DNA of 64,000 nt from Amphiscolops sp. MND2022 (lineage: Eukaryota). Positions 18,585 to 53,163 of this stretch are shown here, piece after piece. The position numbers and the translations under genes were made by a program. The stretch spans positions 65,906,001 to 65,970,000 of the forward strand of contig OZ076415.1 of NCBI GenBank assembly GCA_964187785.1. The letters are read 5' to 3'. The notes below the pieces were generated by a model that worked only from the letters and a program-made list of their open reading frames with translations, searched no databases and was not told the DNA's origin. The first letter of the stretch is position 1, and each line of letters opens with the position of its first letter.

Positions 18585-19315
18585 TGTAACGGCAAGCGCT
18601 AAGCGTTTGGGACGAAACATTGGAGTGGAGGAACTGACACTATGGATATGGTCCGGGACAAACCACCATAGCACCAGCTCACTTTGTCCCCCTGTGGGTA
18701 GCCGGTCCCGAGGAGGGGGAACCGTCTTAAAGGATGCTCTCCGGTCTGATCCAGTCTGTAATTGCTGAGAATAACGGGCATTATGTTTTTTCTCTTCATA
18801 ACCACCGTCTAGACAGCCTTTAAAAACAATGCCAAGGATAAACAGTGTAAATTTCCAATTCCAGAGTGAAATTCCAGGGTGACATGTGAATAAGGTCTAA
18901 AATGGGTACTAAGATCTAAACTGCGAAAACTAGCGCATGGGCTAGCTAAAAACAGTAGAAACACATCAAAATAGGCACGAATATGGCCAACCACACTGCT
19001 ACAAGCACCAAAAAGGATAATTAAGCGAAAAGACGCATTTTTCCGATTCTTGCTACTTTGGGTAGCATAATGCTGAAAATCGGTAAAAACCGGAGTTAGC
19101 ACCTCAAAAAGAGTCTTTTTATGAGTTTTCTGAGCGCATCGGCTTCTACACTCCGTGTTCCCGTTCGGTCGTCTCCGCGGGCGGCTTGCTTCGTCTTCTG
19201 AACTGCTTTTTGACAGGTACTTTGGCCAAAAACATGCTCAATTTGCCACGTCAGATTTGAACGAAATTTTGATCGATTTTTCTGAAAACTCGTTGTACCA
19301 CAGGTTTCCGTTACA
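18585..19315 (-). repeat. Full LTR copy (731 bp) at the 3' side
   Basis: Same termini; differs from the 5' LTR by scattered substitutions and two short indels. Confidence 0.85.
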
Positions 19316-19765
19316 TAAATTTAGAGCATGAAAAAGTCACCGATAAGCTCCAAACGTTTTACTGAAAGTGCTCGGCAATCTATGAAAAGTGGTAAAACTT
19401 CAGCGCACTTCCAACTAAAGATACTCTCTTATCAATTTCTGACTTTTAAAACCTAATTACAACAAACCTGTAAGCTTTCACTCAAGGTGCTTTTGCACGC
19501 TTTTTTGTCCAAAAAATGAAACGGCAGTCATACCTAGCAGTAATCAAGCAAAAAAAGAGAGCCTTTGAATTTTTCACTCATGAAGTCTCATTTTCGGATT
19601 ACCCAATCCACTTATTGAGAATCTTCCTCGCCGTAATCCGTTTCACGTTAATGACAATCAAATAAGTAACAATTTTCAACAAGACGCTCAATTTGCCACG
19701 TCAGATTTGAACGAATTTTTGGTCGATTTTTCTGAAAACTCGTTGTACCACAGGTTTCCGTTACA

Positions 19766-19783
19766 TCCACTCCCCGGGTCTTA
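19766..19783 (-). promoter_or_regulatory. Polypurine tract ...GACCCGGGGAGTGGA directly before TGTAACGG
   Basis: Abuts a third, 78-bp truncated LTR start (19688-19765). Confidence 0.7.
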
Positions 19784-20873: not shown

Positions 20874-22184
20874 TTAGTCGTTGAGCACCCTCCTTGATAT
20901 GAGGAGAGGAATTAGATAAAAATAATGTCCAATACCCAAAATGCAGAACGATAAATTGGGTCTTGAACACGATCTTGGATAGATATTCGACGGGCGGCCA
21001 CGCATAAGTCCCTCCGGTCGGTGTGACCATGACAGTAGAAGGGTTTCCGCAGCTGAGCATGGTGGACGACCACGACGACGTCCGTCATAAAAAGATAGGA
21101 GCACTTTTTGCCATGAGTGCTCACAAGGAGTGCGCGGTGGTCGACCACGCCTATGTCCAGCTGGTCGTGTTTTAGCTGAACCACCAGGCAAGCCTCTGAC
21201 GAAGATTGGTGAGTTTGCCAAAATAATATTCTGCAGACCATGTTTGGCAGAACGTGGCACAAAAGATTCTTTCAACAAATCTGGCAGCAACTTCGAAATT
21301 GATAATGGGGACTTTGTTCCAGGGAAGTGAGAGTTGCAAACCGAATCCATTGGAGTTGTCGATAGGTGATTTTGAAGAAGGTTTGGTGTCGGTGCGGTTT
21401 CAGCTTCCAACACAGCATTGGCAGATAGAATCTTCGTTCCGCAATTTGTTGCAGAGCAATAATTTGGAGTTGAGGGTACCCTCTCCGTTTTCAATGATGA
21501 AATGGAGGGTAAGGTTGTTATCAGTTCCTCTTCCGTATCACTTGTGCAGGGATTGCCCTCGAGCAATCCATAATCAGCAAGGTGATAAATGGGTACCGTA
21601 TCAGCAATGCCCATGGTTGTAGTGTCCAAAAACATTGGGTCCATATCTTTTGTAGGCGGTGTCATTGGTTCTACTTCGGAGTCGTTTGGAATATTGATAG
21701 TTGCACTTTCGAAGTGTACTGCTACACTTAACGACTGCAATTGCGCTAGCGCTCGAGCTAGCAATTTTTCTCTGCGTAGATCGCTTTGTGCCAAAAAGAC
21801 TGATATTTCATCCATCTGCTGCTCCAGGGTCTCTACCTTTTGGTTCAGTGTCTGATAAGTCTGAATACTGGTTTCATGGAGAGAGCATAGTCTCGATGAC
21901 GATACTGAACTAAGACTGGAAGCCCTTATAATCCTCCCTGGCTCGGTAACGCGCGAGTTGCCAGCCATTGAGTCTAGAAAGTTAGCTACAAAATTGAACC
22001 TGTTCTCCAAATTCCAGTCTTCGACGTTCAGATCATCCAATTTCGTTGATCGGTCATGTTCATCTGCCATTTGCGATTCACTTTCTGCTTTCAAGACGGG
22101 TTCAGCGATTAGTTGTGCTGCACTGACACCCTCTCCCCCCTTGAAAAAGGAAAGGAGGCGGTGTAGGACCTTAAACAAAGTCAT
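20874..22184 (-). CDS. Orphan intronless ORF (436 aa from the first ATG; 443 aa from TTG 22205): predicted coiled coil, Ser/Thr/Pro-rich linker, three RGRP repeats, hydrophobic C-terminus
   Basis: 1.3 kb open in an otherwise decayed element. QTLNQKVETLEQQMDEI is heptad-like; repeats HRRGRPP, RRRGRPP, LMRGRPS; tail LSFCILGIGHYFYLIPLLI. No family recognised. Confidence 0.6.
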   Translation of the reverse strand: MTLFKVLHRLLSFFKGGEGVSAAQLIAEPVLKAESESQMADEHDRSTKLDDLNVEDWNLENRFNFVANFLDSMAGNSRVTEPGRIIRASSLSSVSSSRLCSLHETSIQTYQTLNQKVETLEQQMDEISVFLAQSDLRREKLLARALAQLQSLSVAVHFESATINIPNDSEVEPMTPPTKDMDPMFLDTTTMGIADTVPIYHLADYGLLEGNPCTSDTEEELITTLPSISSLKTERVPSTPNYCSATNCGTKILSANAVLEAETAPTPNLLQNHLSTTPMDSVCNSHFPGTKSPLSISKLLPDLLKESFVPRSAKHGLQNIILANSPIFVRGLPGGSAKTRPAGHRRGRPPRTPCEHSWQKVLLSFYDGRRRGRPPCSAAETLLLSWSHRPEGLMRGRPSNIYPRSCSRPNLSFCILGIGHYFYLIPLLISRRVLND

Positions 22185-25100
22185 TTCAGCGTCAGATAGG
22201 TTCAAACTGCTTGACTAGAACTCTTTTTGTACCCAAAATTAGTCTCAGGGTCAAAGTCAAGATGAGCTCCTGTGGTCACAGCGTGCTGAAAAAAGCTTCA
22301 GGTCTTTCACGCAATGCGTTGAGCTGGAAAATTGTGCGCTGGGGCACAAGGATGCGGTAGTGTCGGATAGTGTACTCGAAACAAACAGTCGAGCTGTCTA
22401 TTGACCTCTCAACCTAAAGGAGTTTGGGTGTGTTGCAATTACCCAAAAGTGTTTTCTGCAGAAGTGACATGTTATTCGGTGTTTGTTTTACCTGGCATAG
22501 CAGAAAAACACACGTCGTTTAAGTTGGACGAATGACCTGCCAAAGCTGATAAACACCTCCAGCAACAAGCTAGAGACTTTTTCACCAATTTTTTGAAATT
22601 TTCAAATTTTTTGAAAATTACTCAAGTGGCTCGTACAAAGTGTGGGAACGTAGGATCGTGCTCAAAATCAGCCACTCGGTCCCTCGTCTAGCCAGGCGCA
22701 CTGCAGTAAGCACCAATGGGGTCTCAGGCTATTGGATGAGTTTCCGATACGGTACAAGTGTTCCGTATAGACGAGTCTCAACTGATACGATTTTTCAATG
22801 TGCAATCAATGACTGTCGTCCACGATGCTGAGCTCTCAAGCTCACTTTTACAGAGACGTTGCATCCAATGACACTGACAACAATGGTCCACAGCAAAGTG
22901 GTCCCAACTTTCCGATGAGGTGCTCCGATAACTCTCAAAATTGGTCCAATTTGTCACAATACACAGGATATCACCACTGTAAGAAACGAAATGCTGTCTC
23001 AGCAAAGCAGCACAGTCGATACTGGCCACAAATAGCACGTACAGCAATATGAATTCACGACCAAGAGTTGTGACAAGGGGGTTTTCCGCAGGTTTCTAAC
23101 GTATAGCTGGGTTTAACCCCACTTTTCCAATTTTCGTCTCGGTGAAACCTTAAGTCCAAATCACGATATGCACGTCTCAAGTTGGTCAAAATCACTTCTA
23201 TGGGTCGGAGCGGCCTCAAATTTACTCAGGCAGTTGTTACCAACCCACAAGCCCAGAAAATGAGTTTGGTTCAGAGTTACACGTTCTCTGAGACAAGCAC
23301 GAGATGTTTACAACAAATTTTGAACTTTCTCGGAGATAACAAAAAAAACACAAGTTGCTCGGATTCGTCACTCGACAGTCGGATCTGGCTCAAAGTTGAC
23401 CAGGGGACCCTACAGACACGTAGGTACACGATAGTGAACGCCGATTTGGGTTCCGTGACTTGTACACACTTTCCCCTGGGCACAGACGTTGCGATACTCC
23501 TGTGTATCAGTAGGGGTCAAAATGCACACTAATCACACAATTTCTGAGCACTGGTTGTAGTCAGCGGTCTGGTTTTTCCGCTAGCGGTGTGCCAACTAGT
23601 ATCGGTTGCGTTGGTCAGCAATAAACTGTTCTCACTCTCCGGCTAAGGTATCCGGGTCTTTCCCAAAAAAAATTGAAAAAACGGCCATTTTGTACCTGTT
23701 TTTATGCAGTACGTTTCCGTCAATTTCTCAACGAATACTGCACTGATCGGCACGAAACCTAATACACGTTCCCAGTGGGCACCCACAATGCTGGTATTAC
23801 AGCTCAATGGAAACTTTCGAGTTTACCGGGAACTTGGGCTAGGCGTGGACACGATCTTAGAAAAAACGGTCTTTTTTGACACTTTTTTCACAAATCGGCT
23901 AAGAGGGTCGACACTACAAATGTTACGGCAGGGTCAGTAGGGTTAACGCGTTGCCCCACTGGTCACAGTACTGCCACAAGCCCTCAATTAGCCGTGCCTG
24001 TTAGGTATGAGGCACTGTCGGTCCTACAGTTTTGGAAAAATTCGGCTGTCATAGCTCGTTCTGATGTCGAAACGTCAGAGAGCTTTTCTCAACTTTGGTT
24101 AGCGCTAAGTCCACCAAATTTTCGGTGCGAGCGTTTATTTTGATGGTAATTGCAAAAATGCAACCACTTTTTGGCTAGGGTTCGGGGATCTATGACCCGA
24201 CCCTAACAATTGGACAGTCCGATTTTGTGGAAATTTGATCAAATTCAGTGCGTTTTTCCCTTTTGCTCAACACTGAATGGGAGTTTTGCTCGCAATTTTC
24301 ACTAAAATGCGTTATTTTTATTATAAAAACAGAAAATTAGAGCGCTTGGGCTCCCAGGTTACGAAAACACAGAGTGCCCTATAGGTTTTAATTTTGCACT
24401 CTGACACTCATGAAACTGGCCAAAAATCAAGGTTTTTCGACTGGTGATCACTAAGAAAACGTTACAAACTCTTCTAAATCCTATTTTCGGTACTGTGAAG
24501 TGTGTCCCAAACTAATAGCAGCAAGGAAGAGGCAATTACATTACTATCTGGCACTCTCCCAGTAGCATTTCATGGTGGTTTTTTGCCAATTTCGCCAAAA
24601 ACCGGGTTTTTTTTACAAAATGCGTCCCAAAAAGGACTCCAATGGTCTTCTGGTGAACATTACATTATGTAGCAGTACCCTAGAGGTTTCGAGCTGCTTT
24701 CCATCCATTTTTGCAACTTCTGTGGTAAAAATCTAGAGCGCATGGGCTCGTACCTAGAAAAACATTCAAAAGTGTCAAAATTGACGTTTTTGCTACTTTT
24801 GCACCAAAAATCGGACTTTTCTCACTGAAAACGGTTGCAAGAGCACACACTAAATTGCAACAGGGTACAACTAGCATGAACAAACGATTCCCCATCAAAA
24901 ATTACACAATCGAAAAAATTTTTCATACCATACTCCAAAAATTTGATTCTTCCGGAAAGAGGGGTGGTACCTTCGTTGTCCTTTTTCTCAACATCCAGAC
25001 CAGCTAGAGAGAAACGATTTGAACCGTCGGCAACGTCAACACTGGTTCTACTTTTCCATCAAATCCCATCTTTCAATGACGTCTGTAGCAGAAATGGGAA

Positions 25101-25513
25101 AGGAGAGTCGGGAACACTCGTTTCAGCTCATCTATCAGTCAGATGGAATATGGCGCATCCATCAACTGAATACCTCGTACATAGCCAAAAACGCTGAAAT
25201 GAGCTGTAAAACACCTGTTACGACATGCATAACGGCTTTCTAGTGGTTCCCTAAGCCATTACAAAGGTACCCGCTGATGGGAACGTGCAATTTTAGACGA
25301 TACCTGTCAATAAATACCTGTTATCGAAACATACCATAGGTATTCGGAAAAATCCCGTGAAAGATTAGAAAAATACCAAAATATAACATCATATCATTTA
25401 AAAAACATGGAAAAACTCTGGGTAAACGTCTCCTTCCAGAGCCAAATCGTTCTTGGCGTCAAACACCAGAGGGCCGGAAATTTTAATAACCATGAAGGAA
25501 AGCTTCCAAAAGA

Positions 25514-25533
25514 CGATCCCCCTGTGGTCGCCA
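25514..25533 (-). promoter_or_regulatory. Primer-binding site TGGCGACCACAGGGGGATCG (probably tRNA-Arg type)
   Basis: Plus strand reads CGATCCCCCTGTGGTCGCCA, i.e. a tRNA T-arm/acceptor/CCA end, 15 nt from the LTR end. The Arg assignment is inferred from a GACCAC acceptor stem and G discriminator. Confidence 0.8.
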
Positions 25534-25548
25534 AAAAATGAAGTTCCA

Positions 25549-26287
25549 TGTAACGGCAAGCGCTAAGCGTTTGGGACGAAACATTGGAGTGGAGAAACTG
25601 ACACTATGGATATGGTCCGGGACAAACCACCATAGCACCAGCTCACTTTGTCCTCCTGTGGGTAGCCGGTCCCGAGGAGGGGGAACCGTCTTAAAGGATG
25701 CTCTCCGGCCTGATCCAGTCTGTAATTGCTTAGAATAACGGGCATTATGTTTTTTCTCTTCATAACCACCGTCTAGACAGCTTTTAAAAACAATACAAAG
25801 GATAAACAGTGTAAATTCCCAATTCCAGAGTGAAATTCCAGGGTGACATGTGAATAAGGTCTAAAATGGGTACTAAGATCTAAACTGCGAAAACTAGCGC
25901 ATGGGCTAGCTAAAAACAGTAGAAACACATCAAAATAGGCACGAATATGGCCAACCACACAGCTACAAGCTGGGGCGCAAGGACTCCAAGCACCAAAAAA
26001 GGATAATTAAGCGAAAAGACGCATTTTTCCGGTTCTTGCTACTTTGGGTAGCATAATGCTGAAAATCGGTAAAAACCGGAGTTAGCACCTCAAAAAGAGT
26101 CTATTTATGAGTTTTCTGAGCGCATCGTTTTCCCGTTCGGTCGTCTCCGCGGGCGGCTTGCTTCGTCTTCTGAACTGCTTTTTGACAGGTACTTTGGCCA
26201 AAAACATGCTCAATTTGCCACGTCAGATTTGAACGAAATTTTGGTCGATTTTTCTGAAAACTCGTTGTTCCACAGGTTTCCGTTACA
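25549..26287 (-). repeat. 5' LTR (739 bp)
   Basis: TGTAACGG at 25549 and CCGTTACA ending 26287; highly similar to 18585-19315. Confidence 0.85.
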
Positions 26288-26647
26288 TAAATTTAGAGCA
26301 TGAAAAAGTCACCGATAAGCTCCAAACGTTTTACTGAAAGTGCTCGGCAATCTATGAAAAGTGGTAAAACTTCAGCGCACTTCCAACTAAGGATACTCTC
26401 TTGTCAATTTCTGACTTTTAAAACCTAATTACAACAAACCTGTAAGCTTTCACTCAAGGTGCTTTTGCACGCTTTTTTGTCCGAAAAATGAAACGGCAGT
26501 CATACCTAGCAGTAATCAAGCAAAAAAAGAGCCTTTGAATTTTTCACTCATGAAGTCTCATTTTCGGATTACCCAATCCACTTATTGAGAATCTTCCTCG
26601 CCGTAATCCGTTTCACGTTAATGACAATCAAATAAGTAACAATTTTC

Positions 26648-26950
26648 AACAAGACGCCCGCTAAGCACCGGGATATTTTCCCCAACTTAGTTGACTATTT
26701 TAGTTACTAGAAACTAAATGCGTCACTATGAGGAATTTACTAGAGTGAGCATACGTCACTATGCGGGAATGAGACTCTGAGCATACGTCACTATGCGGAT
26801 TTCACTGGAGCGAGTATGCGCCAGCATTATTCAAGTAACTAAAATAGTCAAGTAGTGGATGGAGATCGCGGAGCTTTGGCAGAATATGGAAAAAAACGCA
26901 ACACAGATTATGCTTCCACTCCGCCGTTATATGTGGGCGGAAAATAATAA
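26648..26950 (-). mobile_element. HINE-like short element, copy 2
   Basis: Same termini as copy 1 (AACAAGACGCCCGCTAAGCACCGGGATATTTTCC ... GGGCGGAAAATAA). Confidence 0.6.
26691..26851. mobile_element. 161-bp MITE-like insert with perfect 18-bp TIRs inside HINE-like copy 2
   Basis: TTGACTATTTTAGTTACT (26691-26708) / AGTAACTAAAATAGTCAA (26834-26851); internal GCATACGTCACTATGCGG repeats. Confidence 0.75.
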
Positions 26951-29846: not shown

Positions 29847-32800
29847 TTCCGCTGTTTCGAACTACAATAGTGATATTTCTAAAAGCAACAAAAGGCAAAT
29901 CTCAAAATCGAATATCTCTAAAACAGTAGCATTTGAGAAATAATAAAAGTGAAAGTTACTTAGATTTTTATCTAGTTTACAAATATCTTTATTTGAAAGT
30001 TATGCGATGACAATTGTAGAAGTTAGGATAACCCATTTTTAACCAAATTTAGGTCAAAATTGAGATTTTTCCCACTTTTAGTCAACTTTTGCTTGATATT
30101 TTAGAGAAATGATATGTGCAATCGACTCCCCTGATTTCACTGAAGCCCTTGATATGTTTTGATTTAGAAATCATCCTAAAATGGAAAAAAAGCTGTAAAA
30201 TTAGGCTTTTCAAAAATACATGTATCAAGATATGATTTTGAACTTTATCAACTTAACACAAGCTCATACTAATACAATTTAGAAAATTTTCGAGAAAAAA
30301 ATAAATATATTCAGATTCGGAATGTTTAGGAAAACTTTTCGGTCAAAATTAATTTGAAATCAAAATATTGTAATTCGGTCAGATATTCGAAAAACTACAA
30401 AATGATGTTTTGGAAATCGCTCTCGACCAATGAAATGAGCGCGTGAGACCTTGATCAGCCAATGATATTTGTTTATTTGCTTTCTTTTCGCGTGCTATGT
30501 TTCTTCTTCTAGAATCACTACTGTACATGTTTGTTTTACGTTGGCTCTTCTAAATTTGCTAGGGACCACACTTAGTCAGGAGTTCCAGGAATGTATTTGA
30601 TATATAATGAACAAGACGAATAAAAAATTCGCACAGTGCCGAAAAATCCAAAGGGGGACCCTTTAGGCACATCCGGTTTTGTAAGTTTCCTTGAAAAGTA
30701 AAACATGAAAGGGGGACCCTTTGGACTAAGGTTGCCTTGGCGGGACTTGGCCTTAGGTGGTTTCAGGATTGTTGGGGCCTCGAAAATAACTTGAAATCAG
30801 CTGTTCGAAAAATACCCTAAAAAAGCCTAATTGGTGGCTGTAAAAGATTGAGTTTTGGGAATCACACTCTAGGATGGTCGGCGACCGACATATTTTTGGC
30901 CAATTAATCCATCTAGGGTAAAAAACCGGAAATCGAAGGCAAAAATTTGAAAAATATTTTTTTCCTGGGACAAAATCAGACTTTTCTTCTAATATAGTAC
31001 AAATTTGGTAATTTATCGTCCTGCTTGTGTATTTAACTTGTCAAGTGGTCATATTTGGTTATATCTAGTCCAGGCGGAAGCCGGTAGAGGTTTTGTAACC
31101 TGATAGAAACTTTGTGGGCAAATAACAAATTTAATCATGAACCACAAAACCTTGTAGATGTATGCTTCAGATGTTGATATACCAATATCTTTATATACTT
31201 TATCGACTCGAAAGTGGGCAGTTTGTTAACTTTATGTATCATTATAGAACCTTTATGGTGCCCTCATATTTGATTGTAAACATGGCAGTTTATGTAATTT
31301 CCTGTATTGATACCAACCCAAGTTAACTCCTTCTTGAAAGAGAGACCCAAAAAGTGAGATTGAAAACGGTTGATATTCCTTGTTCAAGCAACCAAGAAAG
31401 TAATTGTTCGGAACTTTATCAATTGAGTATTCAAGTTAAATTGGGCTATTATAGAGCTATTTCGAAATTGTTCTTGTTTTGATACTGGATTCGAGATTCC
31501 AACAATATATTATTATTGCATTTCGCTCGAAAAGGTTTTGAGACAGAAGACTTTCAATCTTTTGGCAAAGTTATTCGACTACAATTTGTTACTCCCCAAT
31601 TTCATCAACCAGTCAACGGTTTAGTGAGTTTTATGAGAAAACTCTTCAAGTCAGTAAATTCTATGTTTTCAAAACAAGTCGAAAAGTGGTCACAGATGCA
31701 GTAATTGCTTCACCGACCATCGGAAACTTGTTTAAACAATAGGTATTGTCCAGAACTTGAAAAGATGGGACATTTTGAAGTTATTGAAAGTAGTGGATTT
31801 TGCAAGTGCCTTTCTCGCAGAAACAGTTCTTAGACTTTCGAACTACAATAGTAGTTCCGCTATTTCGAACTACAATAGTGATATTTCTAAAAGCAACAAA
31901 AGGCAAATCTCAAAATCGAATATCTCTAAAACAGTAGCATTTGAGAAATAATAAAAGTGAAAGTTAATTAGATTTTTATCTAGTTTACAAATATCTTTAT
32001 TTGAAAGTTATGCGATGACAATTGTAGAAGTTAGAATAACCCATTTTTAACCAAATTTAGGTCAAAATTGAGATTTTTCCCACTTTTAGTCAACTTTTGC
32101 TTGATATTTTAGAGAAATGTTATGTGCAATTGACTCCCCTGATTTCACTGAAGCCCTTGATATGTTTTGATTTAAAAATCATCCTAAAATGGTAAAAAAA
32201 GCTGTAAAATTAGGCTTTTCAAAAATACATGTATCAAGATATGATTTTGAACTTTATCAACTTAACACAAGCTCATACTAATACAATTTAGAAAATTTTC
32301 GAGAAAAAAATAAATATATTCAGATTCGGAATGTTTAGGAAAACTTTTCGGTCAAAATTAATTTGAAATCAAAATATTGTAATTTGGTCAGATATTCGAA
32401 AAACTACAAAATGATGTTTTGGAAATCGCTCTTGACCAATGAAATGAGCGCGTGAGACCTTGATCAGCCAATGATATTTGTTTATTTGCTTTCTTTTCGC
32501 GTGCTATGTTTCTTCTTCTAGAATCACTACTGTACATGTTTGTTTTACGTTGGCTCTTCTAAATTTGCTAGGGACCACACTTAGTCAGGAGTTCCAGGAA
32601 TGTATTTGATATATAATGAACAGGACGAATAAAAAATTCGCACAGTGCCGAAAAACCCAAAGGGGGACCCTTTAGGCACATCCGGTTTTGTAAGTTTCCC
32701 TGAAAAGTAAAACAAGAAAGGGAGACCCTTTGGACTAAGGTTGCCTTGGCGGGACTTGGCCTTAGGTGGTTTCAGGATTGTTGGCGCCTCGAAAATATCT

Positions 32801-33843
32801 TGAAATCAGCTGTTCGAAAAATACCCTAAAATAGCCCAAATGGTGGCTGTAAAAGATTGAGTTTTGGGAATCACACTCAAGGATGGTCGGCGACCGACAT
32901 ATTTTTGGTCAATTAAACCATCTAGGGTAAAAAACCGGAAATCGAAGGCAAAAATTTGAAAAATATTTTTTTCTGGGGCAAAATCAGACTTTTCTTCTAA
33001 TATAGTACAAATTTGGTAATTTATCGTCCTGCTTGTGTATTTAACTTGTCAAGTGGTCATATTTGGTTATATCTAGTCCAGGCGGAAGCCGGTAGAGCTT
33101 TTGTAACCTGATAGAAGCTTTGTGGGCAAATAACAAATTTAATCATGAACCACAAAACCTTGTAGATGTATGCTTCAGATGTTGATATACCAATATCTTT
33201 ATATACTTTATCGACTCGAAAGTGGGCAGTTTGTTAACTTTATGTATCATTATAGAACTTTTACGGTGCCCTCATATTTGATTGTAAACATGGCAGTTTA
33301 TGTAATTTTCTGTTTTGATACCAACCCAAGTTAACTCCTTCTTGAAAGAGAGACCCAAAAAGTGAGATTGAAAACGGTTGATATTCCTTGTTCAAGCAAC
33401 CAAGAAAGTAATTGTTCGGAACTTTATAGTTTGAGTATTCAAGTTAAATTGGGCTATTATAGAGCTATTTCGAAATTGTTCTTGTTTTGATACTGGATTC
33501 GAGATTCCAACAATATATTATTATTGCATTTCGCTCGAAAAGGTTTTGAGACAGAAGACTTTCAATCTTTTGGCAAAGTTATTCGACTACGATTTGTTAC
33601 TCCCCAATTTCATCGACGAGTCAACGGTTTGGTGAGTTTTATGAGAAAACTCTTCAAGTCAGTAAATTCTATGTTTTCAAAACAAGTCGAAAAGTGGTCA
33701 CAGATGCAGTAATTGCTTCACCGACCATCGGAAACTTGTTTAAACAATAGGTATTGTCCAGAACTTGAAAAGAAGGGACATTTTGAAGTTATTGAAAGTA
33801 GTGGATTTTGCAAGTGTTTTTCTCGCAGAAACAGTTCTTAGAC
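29847..33843 (+). repeat. Tandem duplication, period 2008 bp (upstream flank + BEL LTR)
   Basis: Units 29847-31835 and 31855-33843; paired ORFs 31516/33524 are offset by 2008; the units differ by scattered SNPs. Confidence 0.95.
30770..31835 (+). repeat. 3'-truncated copy of the BEL LTR
   Basis: Starts TGTTGGGGCC after the same flank as 32779 and stops at CTTAGAC before the filler. Confidence 0.9.
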
Positions 33844-33921
33844 GTGCCCGCAAGTTGTCAACCAGGCCGTCGTAAAGCTTGGTAAGTTATTTTGTTATCA
33901 TACCTTGCAGACGTAAAATTT

Positions 33922-33939
33922 TGGTGCCGCGACCCGGGA
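33922..33939 (+). promoter_or_regulatory. BEL PBS TGGTGCCGCGACCCGGGA (tRNA-Phe/His-type)
   Basis: 18-nt complement of a tRNA 3' end; identical copy at 44915-44932. Confidence 0.85.
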
Positions 33940-36569
33940 AAAGGCACTGTGCGGGATTCAGTCATTATTTGATTTTCAAAAGAAAATAAAATGGCAGAGC
34001 CGATTGTACGCAATTTGTGGGACCCCACATATATGACTTCAACAAAAAACGGACATGAAAGAAAGGTCTTTTTTACTGACTGCTTGAAAAATTCTTCGAC
34101 AATGAAGGAGTGAGTAGAACACGAAAAACGCGTCTCAGATCTGATTTTAATTCTCAGAAACCTAGACGCGGATTTCCATGCTCAGGATCCAACTGTTTGG
34201 GTTGACGTTGGTAAGTTCTTAACTTACTCAACTTCAAAGGAGAACTTGCGCAAAGAGTTCGAAATGTATCTCCCCATGCTGAAAGATAAGTTTCAAGGCA
34301 GCCGTAAGGAGATCTTGTTCAAATTGGAGTACGAACTTGAAAATTGTTTTGAAAATTGGAGCAAAAAGTCCTCATTTCTTGTGAGCGTGAGTAGGCTTCC
34401 ATCGCGCCTGAAAAATGAAAATGACCTAATGAAGTATATGAAACTCTGCGATCAGTTTTATGACGCTAAACGAATAATTAAAGCAGAAAAAATGACAATC
34501 AATAAACTGATCGAGCAAGGAGCGAGGTCGAGTCATGTGAGAACTGGCTATCCAGAAACTTCAAGAGTACAAAGCGATTTTAGATAAACGTCACGGACGC
34601 AGACGCAATCTTCTCAAACCTGATTCTTTGACCACTTTATCAAACGCCGAAAAAATTGTCACAGAAATGAATTCTATTGTTCAACAGGCAATGACTGACG
34701 CTCTGAACTATATTGATAGCTGAAATACAGCGGCAAACGATCCATTGGAAAACATAGAAACACCTGAAGTGTCTGGTTTTGAAAGTTCGGAGTTATCAAA
34801 AGACGATGAGAACCGTTCTCATGCGTTGGAAAAATCCAAGGCGAATGAAACACTTGACAAAGGATTGAAACTGCTTAAAAAGGCAAATCAATCAACATTA
34901 TTCCTCAAAATTAACGACCGGTTTGATAACCCAACTTTTCAACCTCAATCAGCTACTCCAGGTTCACAAAATGATTTTCTTTAGTAGACTACTCCCCTAC
35001 AAGAACATTAGCTAAGAGTGAGCCAGCAAAAAAAGCCGGTTCAAAAGTAGGATCCAATGTTTCGAAAATGAGTGAACGAAGACGATTGGAGATACAAGCT
35101 GAACTGATAGATCAAAAATCACAAATGGAAATTGAAAAAAAGGGAATATGATTTGAAACTGGAGACAATACGTCGGGAAATGGAAATGGAGAAGAGGCTC
35201 CAAGAGTTGCAGGCAGAATCGGAAAATGCTGATTTGAAACGTAAGAAGGCTTTTGAAAGGCAGCAAATGCGAATGCAAATAGATGAGGCTGAAGGATCAA
35301 TTCGAGCACCTTCAATATGTCCTAGTCGATGTCTCTTATCCTTGAAGAGGATAAAAACAGCGATATCAAAAGTTGGTTAGAACAAGGCGTTGAAGACTTA
35401 GATAAGTGCTTCTCGCAGCCGAAAGAACCTAGCAGAGAAGTAGAAAATAAAGGTGAGACAAGTAAACCGTCTCAGAAGTTCCAAACATTCGCTCACTAAA
35501 ACCTACTATCGCGACCTCAAGATCGAGGTACGAGTAAGTCACCACAGAGAAAAACCACTGGAATTACGTTCCCGAAAACAAACGCTTTGCTCCAGCAAGG
35601 CAATGAGAACCCGAAGCCTAAATATGACTTCGCGAAACCCTCATTCAAAATAGAAAGTGGTATTCCTTCCTTCACACCAGCAGTTCCTGTACAGCAACCT
35701 GTACATTTTGTTCAAACAAGCTTACTTAAATTGAAATTATCTGAAATTCATGGGGACCCATTGGAATGGCCAGAATGGTCCAGCTTGTTCACAGCCACCA
35801 TCCATAATGCGCCAATTGATGACAATGCAAAAATGAGTTATTTGAAAACACTCGTTAAAGGCAAGGCCAAGTCGGCTATTGCGGGTCTCGGATACTCAGG
35901 AGTCATGTATAGTGCAGCGTGGAATGCTTTGGTTACTAATTTCGGACGGCCACGAACCATTGTCAATGCTCAGATGAAGCAAATTCATTTGTGTCCTTTC
36001 ATCAAGTCGCATGATTCAGCAGCTATTATAAAGTACGCACAGTTGATTACTACATGCGTTAAGGTGTTGAAACAGTTCGGGTTCACTGGAGATTTGTATT
36101 CCGAGTCCGTCTTGAATTCAGCGTTGAGGAGGTTACCACCTGAATTGAAAACCAAGTGGTTTTTTCTTGCGAAGAGCAAAGGCTACTACCACGCTGATCT
36201 TTGCAAATTTAGCGAATGGCTGAACGAAGTTGCTTAAGTTCATGATGAAATGACAGTGCAATTCAACGAGAAAGTGAAATCCTCAACATTTGCTGCTAAT
36301 GAGCAGAACAAATTATTACCTGCATCAACAAAGCAATGTCCATTGAAGGATGGCGACCATAAAATCTGGATGTGTAAGAAGTTCAAACAACAAGGTGTTA
36401 ATGAGAGATACGAAACAATTAAGAAATTTAAACTTCGTTTCTGTTGTTTACACTCACATTTGATGAAGGATTGCAAGTCGGACAGAGTTTGTGGAGTAAA
36501 TGGATGCACCAAGAAACATAACAAGCTTTTGCACTCGGACACTCCTAAAACTGAAAAAGACAAGAAATC

Positions 36570-39500
36570 GGAGGAACCCTTGTCTCAAAACAGGGCCAGC
36601 GGTTCTTCAATGCTCTCAACAGGTAGCAGTGGTTTCTTACAGCTGATACCAATCTCAATTGGAAATGAGAAACGAAGCGTTGAAACGATAGCTCTTTGTG
36701 ATACTGGATCCACGGTATCATTTATGGACAAAACTTTGGTCAACATTTTGAAGCTGAAAGGTAAAGAATCCGTGATGTCGGTAGCTGGAATTCATGGGCT
36801 ATCTGACATGAAGACTAAAATTGTTACCGCCAGAATTGGTCCAAGTGGAACAGATACTGCGGGAGAAGAACTGGCCTTCTGCAGTCACCCAAACTTGAAT
36901 GTCGGTGAAAAGTCTACGATTTTACAAAATTGAAAGAAATTTATTCCTATTTGAACACTTTGCCGGATATAATAGTCTCGATGGCTGATGTCAAGGTCTT
37001 TCTTGGTCAAGATGCGTATCACCTGATCAGACCTCTTGAATATAAGTCAGGTGATAGGAATGAGCCTTGGGCAGTTAAAACTTCTTTGGGATGGACAGTG
37101 AGTGGAGCATTACCCAAAGCTGAAAGAAACTGTTTGGAAGCAACGTGTAACCTCTCCGTGTCTTCGGATCCTTTAGCGGATCAAATGAAAAAATGGTGGG
37201 ACATGGAGACATACGCGTCCGTGTGTGATGTCTCAGGACGTTCCAAGGAGGAAAAGAGAGCCCAAGCAATTTTGGAAAAAACTACCCAGCAAAACGGCGA
37301 ACGATATGAAGTAGGACTCCTCTGGGCCGATGACAACCCTAATTTGCCGAACAACTATTATTCTGCTTACCAACAGTTTCTGTCAATGGAGAGAAGACTA
37401 AGCAAGGATCCAGAGTTGAAAGAAGCTTACAAAGTGACCATTGAGATAGACTTAGAAAATCATTTTGTACGGAAACTGGAACAGGAAGAAATTGTGAGTA
37501 CAGAGAATGAAATGCAATGGTATTTACCTCACCATCCGGTCAAGCACCCACACAAATCAGGCAAGGTCAGAAGAGTTTGTAACGCAGCTTCAAAATTTAA
37601 AGGCGTTTCTTTGAATGACAAACTTCTCAGCGGACCTGTTATGTTGCGAAATTTAGTTGGAATTGTTTTTAGGTTTAGGGAACACCAAATAGCTATTACC
37701 GCCGATATTCAGTCCATGTTTTTGCAAGTAGCAGTTCCGAAAGAGGAATGTAAAGTACTTCGTTTCCTATGGCGTGATAGAACTGAAGACAGCATAGGAA
37801 TCTTCGAGTACAACAGGCACGTGTTTGGGGCAAAAAGTTCTCCAACTTGTGCGAACCACGGATTTCTACAAGGAGGAAGAGATCAAAAAGTTGAATTTCC
37901 TTCAGCAGCATCAACCATAGATAGAAACTTCCACTTGGACGATTTAGTGAAAAGTGTTGATAGTCCTCAGGCAGCTATTAATTGTTACCAAGAGTTGGTA
38001 GAGACTCTCAAACGTAGTGGATTCACATTGAAGAAGTGGGCTAGCAACAGTCCGGAAGTTTTGGAAATAATCCCAGTAGAAGATCAATTAGAAGCGAATG
38101 AATTCACGCTTAACGCAGAATCATCTGCCATTCTAGGTTTGGAGTGGATAATCGATAAAGATTGTCTGCAAGTATGTAGAGGACCTAACAAAGAATGTCC
38201 ACAAGATATAAATCAACGAGTAGTGTTATCTTTTGTTTCCTCAGTTTTTGATCCCATGGGAATTTTTGCACCTTTCACTATGCGGATGAGAATGCTTTTG
38301 AAAAGTATCTGGATTCGCTTTGGCCAATCATGGGATGAAAAAATTGCGGATGATGAAAAACAAGTATTCCTAGATTGGGTGACAGAAATGCAAACAATTA
38401 AAAACACCTCACTTCCTAGAAATTATTTCTCTGATGACCCCAAAAACGTTCAACTGCACCTCTTCAGTGATGCGTCTCTAGAAGCTATGTGCATCGTTGC
38501 TTATTTTCGAGCAGAAGTCAATGATGGAGTCGAAGTCTCTTTTGTTTTGGGCAAATGTAGAATAGCTCCCATCAAACAACTGTCTATACCTCGTATAGAG
38601 CTTCAAGCAGCGGTATATTCAGTCTGATTGAGAACCTTGATTAATCAAGAACATGACTTACGGATTAACAGTGTTACTCATTGGACTGATTCAGTTACTG
38701 TGCTTCAATGGTTACACTCAGCTGACAAAAAACAAAATGTTTTTGTAGCTAACAAAGCAGCTGAGATATTGGAAAACTCCACAATTGACAAGTGGAAGCA
38801 CGTTAAAGATGCAATGAATCCATCTGATATTGGGACGCGTGGAATTACTTTAGAGAAATTGACAGAAAGTGATTGGTTATCTGGACCAATTTGGCTCAAA
38901 GACCATCCTGACGATTGGCCTTCGTCTCTGCAACCAATTAACTTGGTGCGTGATGACCATGCTGCAGTTGCAGTAATTGCGAACACAAGCATGACTCAGG
39001 ATCCAATAGTTGATTGGAGCAGGTTTAGCAGTTTTTCCAAATGTGTGCGAGTTATTGCATTTTGCTTACGTTTGAAGTTCAAGAGTCAATCTAAGGTATT
39101 ACTTCCATGTGAACTGCAACGAGCGGAAGAAAAGGTTCTGAAACTAATCCAACGAGAAACCTTTCTTGAAGTATATGATGGAAAGCAATTGTTTGGTAAG
39201 ACAAGCAAAGGTGGAGACTTTTTATTTTCTCTTTTTTTGATGAATGCGGTATGATTCGAATAAGAGGTCGCAGCAAACATGCGAATTTGAGCTTCCAACA
39301 GCGACATCCAATTCTTTTATCCACAAAACACGACATGGTTAGTGTAATGTTACGTGATTTACATCTGGAACACAACCATGAAGGAGTAGAGTATGTTAGA
39401 AGCGTAATACAACAGAAGTTTTGGATTTTGGGATTACGAAATGCTTTGAGGAGCATTAATAGCAATTGTGTTTACTGTCGCAAATTACGTGCGCAGATAA

Positions 39501-42500
39501 AATCTCCTCTCATGGCCGATTTACTTGCCGAGAGGCTCGATTATCAGTCATACCCTTTTACCCACGTTGGAATGGATTAATTCGGTCCATTCGAAGTTAA
39601 AATGTTACGAAGATCCATGAAACGATGGTGCTGTTTGTTTACTTGTTTAACTACCAGAGCAGTGCATATCGAAGTGGTTCGAAGCTTTGACACCGATTCC
39701 TGTTTGGTAGCTATCAACAGATTTATCGCCAGACGTGGCAAGCCAACAACCATCAAAAGTGATAATGGTACTAACTTTGTTGGATCCGCGAGAGAGTTAA
39801 AAGAGTACATCAACTCGTGGAATCAGAATCAAATTACATCAGAATTGCCTCAAAAGCATATCGCATGGAAATTTAACCCTCCTCGAGGAGGAACCCTTGT
39901 CTCAAAACAGGGCCAGCGGTTCTTCAATGCTCTCAACAGGTAGCAGTGGTTTCTTACAGCTGATACCAATCTCAATTGGAAATGAGAAACGAAGCGTTGA
40001 AACGATAGCTCTTTGTGATACTGGATCCACGGTATCATTTATGGACAAAACTTTGGTGAAAGAATCCGTGATGTCGGTAGCTGGAATTCATGGGCTATCT
40101 GACATGAAGACTAAAATTGTTACCGCCAGAATTGGTCCAAGTGGAACAGATACTGCGGGAGAAGAACTGGCCTTCTGCAGTCACCCAAACTTGAATGTCG
40201 GTGAAAAGTCTACGATTTTACAAAATTGAAAGAAATTTATTCCTATTTGAACACTTTGCCGGATATAATAGTCTCGATGGCTGATGTCAAGGTCTTTCTT
40301 GGTCAAGATGCGTATCACCTGATCAGACCTCTTGAATATAAGTCAGGTGATAGGAATGAGCCTTGGGCAGTTAAAACTTCTTTGGGATGGACAGTGAGTG
40401 GAGCATTACCCAAAGCTGAAACAAACTGTTTGGAAGCAACGTGTAACCTCTCCGTGTCTTCGGATCCTTTAGCGGATCAAATGAAAAAATGGTGGGACAT
40501 GGAGACATACGCGTCCGTGTGTGATGTCTCAGGACGTTCCAAGGAGGAAAAGAGAGCCCAAGCAATTTTGGAAAAAACTACCCAGCAAAACGGCGAACGA
40601 TATGAAGTAGGACTCCTCTGGGCCGATGACAACCCTAATTTGCCGAACAACTATTATTCTGCTTACCAACAGTTTCTGTCAATGGAGAGAAGACTAAGCA
40701 AGGATCCAGAGTTGAAAGAAGCTTACAAAGTGACCATTGAGATAGACTTAGAAAATCATTTTGTACGGAAACTGGAACAGGAAGAAATTGTGAGTACAGA
40801 GAATGAAATGCAATGGTATTTACCTCACCATCCGGTCAAGCACCCACACAAATCAGGCAAGGTCAGAAGAGTTTGTAACGCAGCTTCAAAATTTAAAGGC
40901 GTTTCTTTGAATGACAAACTTCTCAGCGGACCTGTTATGTTGCGAAATTTAGTTGGAATTGTTTTTAGGTTTAGGGAACACCAAATAGCTATTACCGCCG
41001 ATATTCAGTCCATGTTTTTGCAAGTAGCAGTTCCGAAAGAGGAATGTAAAGTACTTCGTTTCCTATGGCGTGATAGAACTGAAGACAGCATAGGAATCTT
41101 CGAGTACAACAGGCACGTGTTTGGGGCAAAAAGTTCTCCAACTTGTGCGAACCACGGATTTCTACAAGGAGGAAGAGATCAAAAAGTTGAATTTCCTTCA
41201 GCAGCATCAACCATAGATAGAAACTTCCACTTGGACGATTTAGTGAAAAGTGTTGATAGTCCTCAGGCAGCTATTAATTGTTACCAAGAGTTGGTAGAGA
41301 CTCTCAAACGTAGTGGATTCACATTGAAGAAGTGGGCTAGCAACAGTCCGGAAGTTTTGGAAATAATCCCAGTAGAAGATCAATTAGAAGCGAATGAATT
41401 CACGCTTAACGCAGAATCATCTGCCATTCTAGGTTTGGAGTGGATAATCGATAAAGATTGTCTGCAAGTATGTAGAGGACCTAACAAAGAATGTCCACAA
41501 GATATAAATCAACGAGTAGTGTTATCTTTTGTTTCCTCAGTTTTTGATCCCATGGGAATTTTTGCACCTTTCACTATGCGGATGAGAATGCTTTTGAAAA
41601 GTATCTGGATTCGCTTTGGCCAATCATGGGATGAAAAAATTGCGGATGATGAAAAACAAGTATTCCTAGATTGGGTGACAGAAATGCAAACAATTAAAAA
41701 CACCTCACTTCCTAGAAATTATTTCTCTGATGACCCCAAAAACGTTCAACTGCACCTCTTCAGTGATGCGTCTCTAGAAGCTATGTGCATCGTTGCTTAT
41801 TTTCGAGCAGAAGTCAATGATGGAGTCGAAGTCTCTTTTGTTTTGGGCAAATGTAGAATAGCTCCCATCAAACAACTGTCTATACCTCGTATAGAGCTTC
41901 AAGCAGCGGTATATTCAGTCTGATTGAGAACCTTGATTAATCAAGAACATGACTTACGGATTAACAGTGTTACTCATTGGACTGATTCAGTTACTGTGCT
42001 TCAATGGTTACACTCAGCTGACAAAAAACAAAATGTTTTTGTAGCTAACAAAGCAGCTGAGATATTGGAAAACTCCACAATTGACAAGTGGAAGCACGTT
42101 AAAGATGCAATGAATCCATCTGATATTGGGACGCGTGGAATTACTTTAGAGAAATTGACAGAAAGTGATTGGTTATCTGGACCAATTTGGCTCAAAGACC
42201 ATCCTGACGATTGGCCTTCGTCTCTGCAACCAATTAACTTGGTGCGTGATGACCATGCTGCAGTTGCAGTAATTGCGAACACAAGCATGACTCAGGATCC
42301 AATAGTTGATTGGAGCAGGTTTAGCAGTTTTTCCAAATGTGTGCGAGTTATTGCATTTTGCTTACGTTTGAAGTTCAAGAGTCAATCTAAGGTATTACTT
42401 CCATGTGAACTGCAACGAGCGGAAGAAAAGGTTCTGAAACTAATCCAACGAGAAACCTTTCTTGAAGTATATGATGGAAAGCAATTGTTTGGTAAGACAA

Positions 42501-43179
42501 GCAAAGGTGGAGACTTTTTATTTTCTCTTTTTTTGATGAATGCGGTATGATTCGAATAAGAGGTCGCAGCAAACATGCGAATTTGAGCTTCCAACAGCGA
42601 CATCCAATTCTTTTATCCACAAAACACGACATGGTTAGTGTAATGTTACGTGATTTACATCTGGAACACAACCATGAAGGAGTAGAGTATGTTAGAAGCG
42701 TAATACAACAGAAGTTTTGGATTTTGGGATTACGAAATGCTTTGAGGAGCATTAATAGCAATTGTGTTTACTGTCGCAAATTACGTGCGCAGATAAAATC
42801 TCCTCTCATGGCCGATTTACTTGCCGAGAGGCTCGATTATCAGTCATACCCTTTTACCCACGTTGGAATGGATTAATTCGGTCCATTCGAAGTTAAAATG
42901 TTACGAAGATCCATGAAACGATGGTGCTGTTTGTTTACTTGTTTAACTACCAGAGCAGTGCATATCGAAGTGGTTCGAAGCTTTGACACCGATTCCTGTT
43001 TGGTAGCTATCAACAGATTTATCGCCAGACGTGGCAAGCCAACAACCATCAAAAGTGATAATGGTACTAACTTTGTTGGATCCGCGAGAGAGTTAAAAGA
43101 GTACATCAACTCGTGGAATCAGAATCAAATTACATCAGAATTGGCTCAAAAGCATATCGCATGGAAATTTAACCCTCCT
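36570..43179 (+). repeat. Internal 3.3-kb tandem duplication of protease-RT-RH-partial integrase
   Basis: Copies 36570-39883 and 39887-43179; offset 3317, becoming 3296 after a 21-nt deletion in copy 2. Both copies share the same disabling lesions. Confidence 0.95.
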
Positions 43180-44914
43180 GGGGCACCTCATTTTGGGGGT
43201 GTTTGGGAACGGTTGGTCAGAAGTTGCAAGAAAGCAATGGGAAATCGATCTCTGACTGATGAATCTTTGACTACAACCATGTGCTTGGTTAAACAAACTT
43301 CGATTGCACGTCCTATTACCCCAGCAAGTGATGATCCTGCTGATTTGAAGGCCCTTACGCCTAATCATTTCATTCTGGGTCGTGCGAATATTTGTATACC
43401 CTTTATCCCCAATGCTGAAGTTTTATTCCAATCATCGCAAGATGTTTCGATTGTGTCAGGCTTATGCTGATATGATTTGGAAACGATGGGTTGCAGAATA
43501 CCTACCCCAAACCCATGTCAGAAACCATTCGAGTAAACAAGAAGCCAATGTTGAAGTTGGCGACTTAGTTTGGTTGGTGGATAACAATGTGAAAAGGTCT
43601 CATTATAAGATGGCACGAATTCAAGAAATTTATCCAGCCAAAGATGGTATAGTGAGATCAGTGCTCATCAAAACTCATGATGGTACCTTCAAACGACCTG
43701 TAGTAAAGTTGGCGCCAGTCTTCAATGAGCGTTTTCAGTCTAAAAACGGGGCAGGCATTGTTGGCGCCTAGAAAATAACTTGAAATCAGCTATTCGAAAA
43801 ATACCCTAAAATAGCCCCAATTGGTGGCTGTAAAAGATTGAGTTTTGGGAATCACACTCTAGGATGGTCGGCGACCGACATATTTTTGGCCAATTAAACC
43901 ATCTAAGGTAAAAAACCGGAAATCGAAGGCAAAAATTCGAAAAATATTTTTTTCTGAGGCAAAATCAGACTTTTCTTCTAATATAGTACAAATTTGGTAA
44001 TTTATCGTCCTGCTTGTGTATTTAACCTGTCAAGTGGTCATATTTGGTTATATCTAGTCCAAGCGGAAGCCGGTAGAGCTTTTGTAACCTCATAGAAGCT
44101 TTGTGGGCAAATAACAAATTTAATCATGAACCACAAAACCTTGTAGATGTATGCTTCAGATGATGATATACCAATATCTTTATATACTTTATCGACTCGA
44201 AAGTGGGCAGTTTGTTAACTTTATGTATCAATATAGAACAATTATTGTGCCCTCATATTTGATGGTAAACATGGCAGTTTATGTAATTTCCTGTATTGTT
44301 ACCAACCCAAGTTAACTCCTTCTTGAAAGAGAGACCCAAAAAGTGAGATTGAAAACGGTTAAAATTCCTTGTTCAAGCAACCAAGAAAGTAATTGTTCGG
44401 AACTTTATCGATTGAGTATTCAAGTTAACATGGGCTATTATAGAGCTATTTCGAAGTTGTTCTTGTTTTGATACTGGATTCGAGATTCCAACAATATATT
44501 ATTATTGCATTTCTGGCAATTTTTCGCTTGAAAAGGTTTTGAGACAGAAGACTCTCAATCTTTTGGCAAAGTTATTCGACTACGATTTGTTACTCCCCAA
44601 TTTAATCGACGATGCAACTGTTTAGTGAGTTTTATGAGACAACTCTTCAAGTCAGTAAATTCTATGTTTTCAAAACAAGTCGAAAAGTGGTCACAGATGC
44701 AGTAATTGCTTCACCGACCATCGGAAACTTGTTTAAACAATAGGTATTGTCCAGAACTTGAAAAGAAGGGACATTTTGAAGTTATTGAAAGTAGTGGATT
44801 TTGCAAGTGCCTTTCTCGCAGAAACAGTTCTTAGACGTGCCCGCAAGTTGTCAACCAGGTCGTCGTAAAGCTTGGTAAGTGATTTTGTTATCATACCTTG
44901 CAGACGTAAAATTT

Positions 44915-45424
44915 TGGTGCCGCGACCCGGGAAAAGGCACTGTGCGGGATTCGGTCATTATTTGATTTTCAAAAGAAAATAAAATGGCAGAGCCGACTGT
45001 ACGCAATTTGCGGGACCCCACATATATGACTTCAACAAAAAACTGACATGAAAGAAAGGTCTTTTTTACTGACTGCTTGAAAAATTCTTCGACAATGAAG
45101 GAGTGAGTGGAACACGAAAAACGCGTCTCAGATCTGATTTTAATTCTCAGAAACCTAGGCGCGGATTTCCAGGATCTCCATGCTCAGGATCCAACTGTTT
45201 GGGTTGACGTTGGTAAGTTCTTAACTTACTCAACTTCAAAGGATAACTTGCGCAAAGAGTTCGAAATGTATCTCCCCATGCTGAAAGATAAGTTTCAAGG
45301 CAGCCGTAAGGAGATCTTGTTCAAATTGGAGTACGAACTTGAAAATTGTTTTGAGAATTGGAGCAAAAAGTCCTCATTTCTTGTGAGCGTGAGTAGGCTT
45401 CCATCGCGCCTGAAAATTGAAAAT
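44915..45424 (+). mobile_element. Start of a second, tandem BEL internal region sharing the 43759 LTR
   Basis: PBS plus gag start matching 33922-34420, with SNPs and a 9-nt insertion; cut by the gap. Confidence 0.9.
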
Positions 45425-51869: not shown

Positions 51870-53160
51870 GTGATATCACCAATTCTGTTCGTTTTTTTTC
51901 GTTTCCAACATGTTCAAAAACCTCAACTGTAAGAAGTTCAATCACGCTGACGATGGAAACCTTAAGACAGAAGACACTTAAACTCAAGCTGTCAAATTTT
52001 TCTCAAACAACTGGAACGGTGGTTCAAAAATTGGTGGCTCGCAGTCAATGGTGACAAGACGTCAATAATCTAACTCAACACTGAGAACACGCACGCCCCG
52101 AAGTTTTTCAGCAAGGCCTGCAAGGTCACCAGAAACACAAAAATACTGGGTTTCATTGTGGACAACAAACTGAATTTCAACGAACATCTACAGCAGGTAG
52201 AAGAGAAAATTGCTAAACAGTTGATCATATTCAAAAAGTTTTGCGGCTCTAATTGGGGTCTAAAGCAAGCAACGCTCATAAAACTTTGCAAAACTCTAGT
52301 GCTCCGCCGACGCCGACTTCTGTACGCGGCCCCTGTGTGGGCCAGGAAACATGTTCAAGCACTTAGCCGATTCCAATACAACACGCTCAAACTTATCATA
52401 GATACAAGTACGAAATGCGATAAGTTGGCAGCGGAAATACTGTGCCGTCTCCCGCCTATGCAAATTCAAACTGACACTGTTACTAATTTAAAATTGGAAT
52501 CAAGCTTTATCAATAGCAGGACATATTGTTGAAACTGTATCGGAAATGTCAATTGCCAGAAATAAAAAGTGATAAAAACTTCATTAACGGTTTTTATGAA
52601 GTCACAGGTGCAACAAATTTTTACACGGTGTCAGTTTGCCTTGAGTACCTGAGAAGTAGATGGAACAGAATTTTCAAAAATGCGCTCACGACTACCTCAA
52701 CGGATTGGTCAATCACTCAAAATGAATTGGAAGGAATTGCCTATCCAAAAACAACAAGCAGACACCTAGAAAGAACTATCAACAAATTCCTTTTCAATTG
52801 CAACGTTGAACCGACCGAAAATGCGTATCAAATTTGGCGGGCGGAGACTCCGCTCTGCACTTGTCGAGTAGATACGGAACCAGTCCTGCATTACTTATTC
52901 TTTTCCCCCTGTACAAGCGAATTAGGTCCAGTTTGTAGAATACCAGTTTGTAGAGTTCTACGAACTTTTCTAGATGCTCCAGTCTGTAGAATATTTTCTA
53001 CAAACTAGATCATTAATTTCTTTAAACTGGATCAATAAATTCTACAAACAGGACATCTTTGACACAAGATCATGAGAGCTCCACCGCAAAGATCCAAAGA
53101 AATAAGATCTAAAAACTGAAATGTGGGGCATATCTGGTATATGCATGCTTCGCGAAATCC
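51870..53160 (+). mobile_element. Second, 5'-truncated copy of the same LINE 3' part plus its downstream flank
   Basis: Matches 50538-51800; the coding part is clearly diverged while the last ~330 bp are nearly identical. Confidence 0.9.
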
Positions 53161-53163
53161 TTT

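Follow-up and report, generated by a model that had tools for sequence, protein, structure and literature searches.

An open reading frame on the minus strand of the Amphiscolops sp. MND2022 genome raises a question that its sequence does not answer at first sight: what kind of gene is it, and what keeps it open? The frame (P0001, 436 aa, 20874..22184) lies in a 64,000-nucleotide stretch of contig OZ076415.1, to which we refer throughout as the window. An earlier note, made from the letters alone, described the product as an orphan protein with an N-terminal coiled coil, three RGRP motifs resembling AT-hooks at a period of about 24 residues, and a hydrophobic tail, perhaps a DNA-binding accessory protein.

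The reading frame and its predicted product

The plus strand is closed over 20874-22184. On the minus strand the three RGRP motifs of the note stand at residues 346, 371 and 395 (21138..21149, 21063..21074 and 20991..21002), with spacings of 25 and 24 and with diverged flanks around the third in this copy. Two or more RGRP motifs arose in 0/100,000 shuffles of the residues, and the six frames of the entire window contain only five. HMGA-type AT-hooks (PF02178) consist of an R-G-R-P core with basic flanks. P0001, a putative DNA-binding protein, has this core and basic flanks in three repeats and differs in lacking the usual extended K/R-rich flanks; the best Pfam match of the hook region is AT_hook PF02178, at 9.1-9.4 bits against a cut-off of 17.4. 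The DNA of the first hook (window 21136-21151) forms a perfect palindrome of 14 bp; it is retained by each of the three subfamilies described below and may serve as an RNA or DNA signal.

An AlphaFold model built from a 64-sequence alignment is mostly disordered (mean pLDDT 50, pTM 0.32), with helices predicted at residues 2-15, 59-74, 97-133 and 138-161 and pLDDT of 76-87 at residues 101-150. The first of these is a predicted amphipathic helix (22140..22181) with the highest hydrophobic moment of 422 windows. The predicted coil at residues 97-161 (21702..21896) aligns with the Gag coil of the helper elements described below. The N-terminal coil of the note survives as a pair of predicted helices, but not as a strict heptad repeat: the best phase places hydrophobic residues at 8/16 a/d positions. 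A complex prediction for two copies of residues 92-166 scored 0.01, which we count neither for nor against self-association. Pfam assigned no family to P0001 at cut-off and found in it no capsid-type Gag domain (UBN2, Retrotrans_gag), and an ESM Atlas search gave no usable match. As a candidate membrane anchor, the T-rich hydrophobic tail (20877..20978) reaches a best 19-residue hydropathy of 1.2-2.0 in the coding frame, and up to 1.9 in the +1 frame of the same T-rich DNA.

A gene carried by a non-autonomous LTR element

Searching the genome with its own protein returned 144 matches from 96 scored places, out of 1705 candidates, many of them in unbroken frames of 395-488 aa, and the database holds 316 relatives, with none named among the best 120. 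P0001 is thus a mobile-element gene with hundreds of copies rather than an orphan of the host; to call its product an accessory protein that combines basic hooks with a helical coil is still fair.

Ten sister copies were retrieved with long flanks, and every one is bounded by direct repeats of 730-800 bp; the two members of a pair are 96.7-100% alike, or 93.5% in one case. The elements measure 7.8-9.0 kb and carry a single ORF of 430-490 aa (10/10), with no other long sense ORF and no pol ORF (RT/IN coding capacity) in any of the ten. Their long terminal repeats (LTRs) start with TGTA and end with ACA (TG..CA type), a primer-binding site follows the first and a purine-rich tract precedes the second, and the start codon is found 3.4-4.8 kb downstream of that site.

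The primer site matches the genome's own tRNA-Arg(TCG) genes. Several hundred gene copies for this tRNA, which primes these elements, stand in tandem at about 174-bp spacing in G000:C9:57537000-57569000 (L112-L116); some of the copies are called with a TCA anticodon. Among 51 elements examined for target-site duplications (TSDs), 30 could be scored at both ends: 28 of these 30 have a 3-bp TSD, helpers and parasites alike, and none has one of 4 bp. A duplication of 3 bp is unusual yet not unheard of, since the range given for LTR elements in a passage of PMC10045372 is 3-6 bp. Another kind of non-autonomous element occurs at L081 (G000:C1:15769472-15779471), 8.7 kb long with LTRs 99% alike and a 3-bp TSD, which holds frames resembling the second ORF of the helpers and has no gag-pol.

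The copy in the window

The window copy reads along the minus strand from a 739-bp 5' LTR (TGTAAC...GTTACA, 25549..26287) through a primer-binding site complementary to the 3' end of tRNA-Arg(TCG) (25522..25533) into a long non-coding leader (22185..25521), the first 2-3 kb of which is homologous to helper leaders. About 550 bp present in sister copies is missing from this leader near 22511-22533. Beyond the ORF, a purine-rich tract common to the helpers (19766..19778) stands ahead of the 3' LTR, which is interrupted after its first 80-90 bp (19686..19765). Next to it, 371 bp (19317..19687) repeat the 5' flank at 26289-26657 with 98.7% identity, a rearrangement specific to this copy; then comes a complete second LTR with 14 mismatches and 3 gaps relative to the 5' LTR (18585..19315). 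The copy has no perfect TSD and is an older, rearranged member of its family.

Other repeats share the window. A broken BEL/Pao element at 35500-43770, in which about 3.3 kb is duplicated in tandem, is flanked by repeats at about 31500-34400 and 44500-45400. Three copies of a 1.3-kb unit, about 99% alike, form a tandem array at 53147-57159, with an inverted partial copy near 58171-58373. At 60081-63999 on the minus strand lies a fragmented LINE with endonuclease and RT pieces, whose upstream frame (63322-63999) by eye resembles an SGNH-esterase ORF1.

Selection on the RGRP frame

We assembled 44 unbroken ORFs from 61 sources, which fall into subfamilies A (that of the window copy), B and C. 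Between A and either of the others, dN/dS is 0.44-0.47 over residues 1-232 (95% CI 0.30-0.68) and 0.27-0.32 over residues 326-404 (bootstrap CI 0.11-0.62). The overlapping +1 frame that the earlier note had pointed out is indeed open, at 20912..21271 on the minus strand, and has no detectable selection; its dN/dS over the hooks is 0.85-1.06. The RGRP frame is therefore under purifying selection and the overlapping frame is not, which settles the choice between frames that the note had left to such a comparison. We reject the +1 frame as the true C-terminus on the same ground, its dN/dS being about 1. Between B and C the ratio is 0.87 (CI 0.59-1.34), and 1.20 for the N-terminal half; in this pair, one of those among only three subfamilies compared, no constraint is detectable beyond the open frame.

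The pattern of change has the same character. Wherever indels cluster in the ORF core, the frame is regained within 3 codons, in 3/3 subfamily pairs, whereas 16/86 indels in the upstream non-coding DNA have lengths divisible by three. An in-frame insertion of about 45 codons (21354..21488) is specific to subfamily A. In the nine RRGRPP motif cores, only silent changes separate the subfamilies. Among the best 120 of the 316 database relatives, 88 reach the third linker, and of these 61/88 have three RGRP motifs, 25/88 two and 2/88 one. The spacing from the second hook to the third is 24, 21 and 19 in subfamilies A, B and C, so a period of about 24 residues does not hold for the family. Likewise LMRGRPS, read by the note as the third motif, is a property of the window copy's lineage: among the relatives listed, the motif is GHRRGR in 65, GPRRGR in 10 and GLMRGR in 1. 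The tail that follows is hydrophobic in all three subfamilies, and often in the +1 frame too; its sequence, length and frame vary by subfamily, and two older copies (L014, L016) have shifted into the +1 frame at their ends. The hydrophobic tail exists, then, but is not conserved.

From these observations we conclude with high confidence that P0001 is under selection and is the single long gene of a non-autonomous LTR element derived from Ty3/Gypsy.

Helper elements

The primer-site pattern has 2025 exact matches genome-wide, and we took the first 40 places on contig C1 as a sample, extending twenty of them. P0001 matched 11 of the 40, 9 of these 11 having both LTRs within 9 kb, and many of the remaining places carry gag-pol. 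These autonomous helpers are 15-19 kb long (18-19 kb at most of the twenty extended places), with Gag-Pol frames of up to 3310 aa and a second ORF of 1430-1550 aa. The second ORF had no match in Pfam and gave only leads below 0.9 in the ESM Atlas. In Gag-Pol, the Pfam domains follow the Gypsy order of zinc knuckle, protease, RT, RNase H and integrase, and the closest solved relative is Ty3 Gag-Pol. Helpers and parasites have their LTR ends and the first 2-3 kb of the leader in common. Two 18-19 kb Gypsy helpers on G000:C1 (L071+L091 and L057+L095) have Gag-Pol frames of 3200-3300 aa. A young autonomous element of 14.8 kb (L078, G000:C1:12147014-12166513) has an intact 2773-aa frame in which almost all of the pre-capsid region is missing. 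Because elements of the L078 type are young and intact without most of this N-terminus, the coil is not strictly needed in cis in that subfamily.

Origin of the two halves

A profile of residues 1-232, searched against 1368 ORFs, matched its own family first and then pre-capsid stretches of helper Gag, in colinear order. HHalign against 18 pre-capsid regions gave 94% (E 1.2e-7), and the reversed control 0.2% (E 0.27). The aligned pieces are a serine-rich block, the coil, a D/E-T-S/T-S/T-M-G motif and an N-P-C motif; in the reciprocal search, a Gag profile scored a median of only 4.3 bits on the ORFs and 0.1 when reversed. In P0001 the homologous part covers residues 1-228 (21501..22184), and the homology stops ahead of the capsid start. 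This alignment indicates that the N-terminal half derives from the pre-capsid region of a helper Gag. The earlier note had named a match to a known gag as grounds for giving up its reading; such a match now exists for half of the protein.

The hook half points elsewhere in the helpers. In B and C, the stretch that runs from about residue 232 up to the first hook can be aligned to the linker separating integrase from the RGRPP tract in L057-type helpers. It scores 60 and 56 against a 3192-aa Gag-Pol, with 0/200 shuffles as high. The alignment ends on RGRPP, and HHalign gives it 15-30%. Significance was reached for 2-3 of 8 helper ORFs with B or C queries, but not for a subfamily A query against the L057 linker (84/200 shuffles as high), nor once the hooks were removed (E 0.08). 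The corresponding residues of the window copy, 278-352 (21129..21353), are weakly similar to this linker and likewise end on RGRPP. We consider it probable that the hook half came from the helpers' post-integrase tail, making the gene a chimera. A large in-frame internal deletion would have removed the capsid, the zinc knuckle and all the enzymes, after which the RRGRPP motif would have been triplicated. As regards an origin from a processed, spliced RNA, five helper families have no conserved splice donor or acceptor at the inferred junction.

Apparent return of the module to an autonomous family

In three longer database proteins (P0122-P0124) the first ~310 residues of the parasite's ORF are joined in frame to capsid and protease. 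Of 150 genomic places scored for the fusion junction, about 100 match it over its full length, and several of these lie in frames of 3048-3064 aa. The same search also listed several L078-type frames of 2766-2776 aa. Of 30 loci fetched, 17 proved readable in one frame with the start of the capsid. There is thus an autonomous family whose Gag N-terminus consists of about 310 P0001-type residues, read continuously into capsid and Pol. A quick, midpoint-rooted tree of 51 rows places the 17 fused loci in a single group (support 88) nested within the C lineage (99); B, C and the fused loci group together with support 100, and B and A lie outside the C lineage.

This topology suggests that the autonomous family re-captured its N-terminus from the parasite. 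Re-capture is the simpler reading because A, B and C share the hooks and the fused Gag holds a piece resembling the integrase linker. Where it joins the capsid, the fused family retains the ORF's N-terminal motifs a second time in short form (L089:6325-6520); the greater likeness of this short copy to subfamily A suggests a remnant of the ancestral Gag. The fused family uses the same long leader as the parasite, which suggests that this leader is translatable.

Possible function

Our best overall explanation, held with middling confidence, is a selected gene joining a Gag N-terminus to hooks whose product likely acts in cis as a packaging adaptor. That a non-autonomous element's own ORF is selected across separately amplifying subfamilies argues for a benefit in cis; and the adaptor is our best guess at the benefit because capsid and zinc knuckle were lost, the Gag coil was kept and three basic hooks were gained. 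On this view the coil would assemble together with its homologue in helper Gag, the three RRGRPP motifs would take over nucleic-acid binding from the zinc knuckle that was lost, and the RNA encoding the protein would thereby be favoured for packaging into helper particles. We offer this mechanism tentatively; if the ATG, 3.4-4.8 kb past the primer site, is reached on a spliced or internally started RNA, the argument from cis becomes weaker. The fullest account, in which a parasite fused a Gag N-terminus to an integrase tail, tripled the hook, hijacks helper particles and returned the module to an autonomous family, is doubtful as a whole.

The three conserved R-R-G-R-P-P motifs, and an AT_hook as best Pfam match even though below cut-off, would also suit a protein of the nucleus. 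Here the hooks would bind AT-rich DNA or nascent RNA and the coil would oligomerise, so as to promote transcription, the export of unspliced RNA or evasion of silencing, on the model of Cer1 CERV or retroviral Rev-type factors; the basic clusters could be nuclear localisation signals. Passages of PMC10309623 describe CERV as an accessory protein that draws on exons in the gag frame and on a downstream ORF, and as required for gRNA export. The likeness of P0001 to it is one of analogy. The helpers show no conserved splice signals at the inferred junction, and a diffusible factor would help all copies, so that lasting selection on an element's own ORF would be harder to explain. We judge a nuclear role unlikely.

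The comparison of B with C, with dN/dS near 1, together with the disordered model and the variable C-terminal ends, could instead mean that the protein is nearly functionless, its frame held open for RNA-level reasons such as translation-coupled stability or avoidance of decay, or a decaying relic renewed by recombination with helpers. The comparisons involving A, with ratios well below 1 and lowest in the hooks, and the purely silent change in the motif cores speak against this, and the helpers have no counterpart of the hook triplet from which it could be renewed; we regard this explanation as improbable.

If the motif probably came from a post-integrase region, and RGRP is kept in all helper families examined, the hooks might be thought to guide integration, the protein riding with the pre-integration complex and tethering it to AT-rich chromatin, much as the tail of an integrase may do. 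Around 13 non-autonomous insertions the flanking DNA is 61-63% AT, compared with 63% at greater distance and 61% for the window, and around 14 helper insertions it is 65-67%; TSD length is the same in helpers and parasites. Since the 13 flanks are not AT-rich, targeting of this kind is disfavoured, and we think it improbable. A captured host gene carried as cargo (an orphan AT-hook, membrane-anchored protein) would fit the missing Pfam family, atlas match and named relative among the best 120, but the Gag homology, the in-frame Gag-Pol fusions, the LTRs around every fetched full-length copy and the unconserved tail largely refute it and leave it hardly credible.

Comparison with known elements

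The element works in the manner of a TR-GAG or LARD-type parasite on Gypsy elements. The TR-GAGs of plants, as portrayed in passages of PMC4350172, are also non-autonomous LTR elements with a primer-binding site, a purine-rich tract, a TSD and one gag-derived ORF of comparable length (433 aa in TR-GAG1). Those passages describe them as shorter than 4 kb, with 5-bp TSDs and a capsid-type Gag domain (UBN2 or Retrotrans_gag) plus a zinc knuckle, whereas the present element is 7.8-9.0 kb long, has 3-bp TSDs and encodes only the pre-capsid part, with three RRGRPP motifs instead. Capsid-type domain, length and TSD thus all place it outside the TR-GAGs.

Like LARDs and the large non-autonomous LTR derivatives in passages of PMC13570524, the present element is large, LTR-bounded and enzyme-less, shows reshuffling by recombination with partners and has several kilobases of conserved non-coding interior. 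It differs from LARDs in having an ORF under purifying selection and identifiable helpers, and in that it appears to have returned its 5' part to an autonomous family. The helpers resemble Ty3/Gypsy (Metaviridae-type) elements in their single gag-PR-RT-RH-IN frame, tRNA primer site and TG..CA ends; they depart from them in their length of 15-19 kb, long post-integrase tail and second ORF of 1430-1550 aa, and their 3-bp TSD lies at the short edge of the 3-6 bp found in the relevant passage of PMC10045372. The Cer1 accessory protein CERV of C. elegans likewise joins a gag-frame N-terminus to a downstream part, and Cer1 Gag too has a coiled-coil pre-capsid region; according to the same passages of PMC10309623, CERV is spliced from an autonomous element and has a G-like domain, whereas the present join lies in the DNA of a separate, non-autonomous family. 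Searches of the open-access literature on Gypsy elements with 3-bp TSDs, and on AT-hooks in non-autonomous or Gypsy elements, yielded no paper on an element of this type.

Implications

A gene that looked like a host orphan belongs to a repeat with hundreds of copies, a lesson for annotation; and annotation settings that expect 4-6 bp would miss a uniform 3-bp TSD. Non-autonomous LTR elements are usually non-coding or carry a capsid-type Gag. A chimera of Gag N-terminus and hooks, free of capsid and knuckle and under selection, offers a route to how defective elements win packaging by their helpers, and bears on the role of the poorly understood pre-capsid coil of Gypsy Gag. We consider exchange with the helpers in both directions likely. 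The apparent re-capture indicates that coding modules can pass back from a parasite to an autonomous family; if true, this would be a two-way parasite-helper exchange in a Gypsy lineage with 3-bp TSDs.
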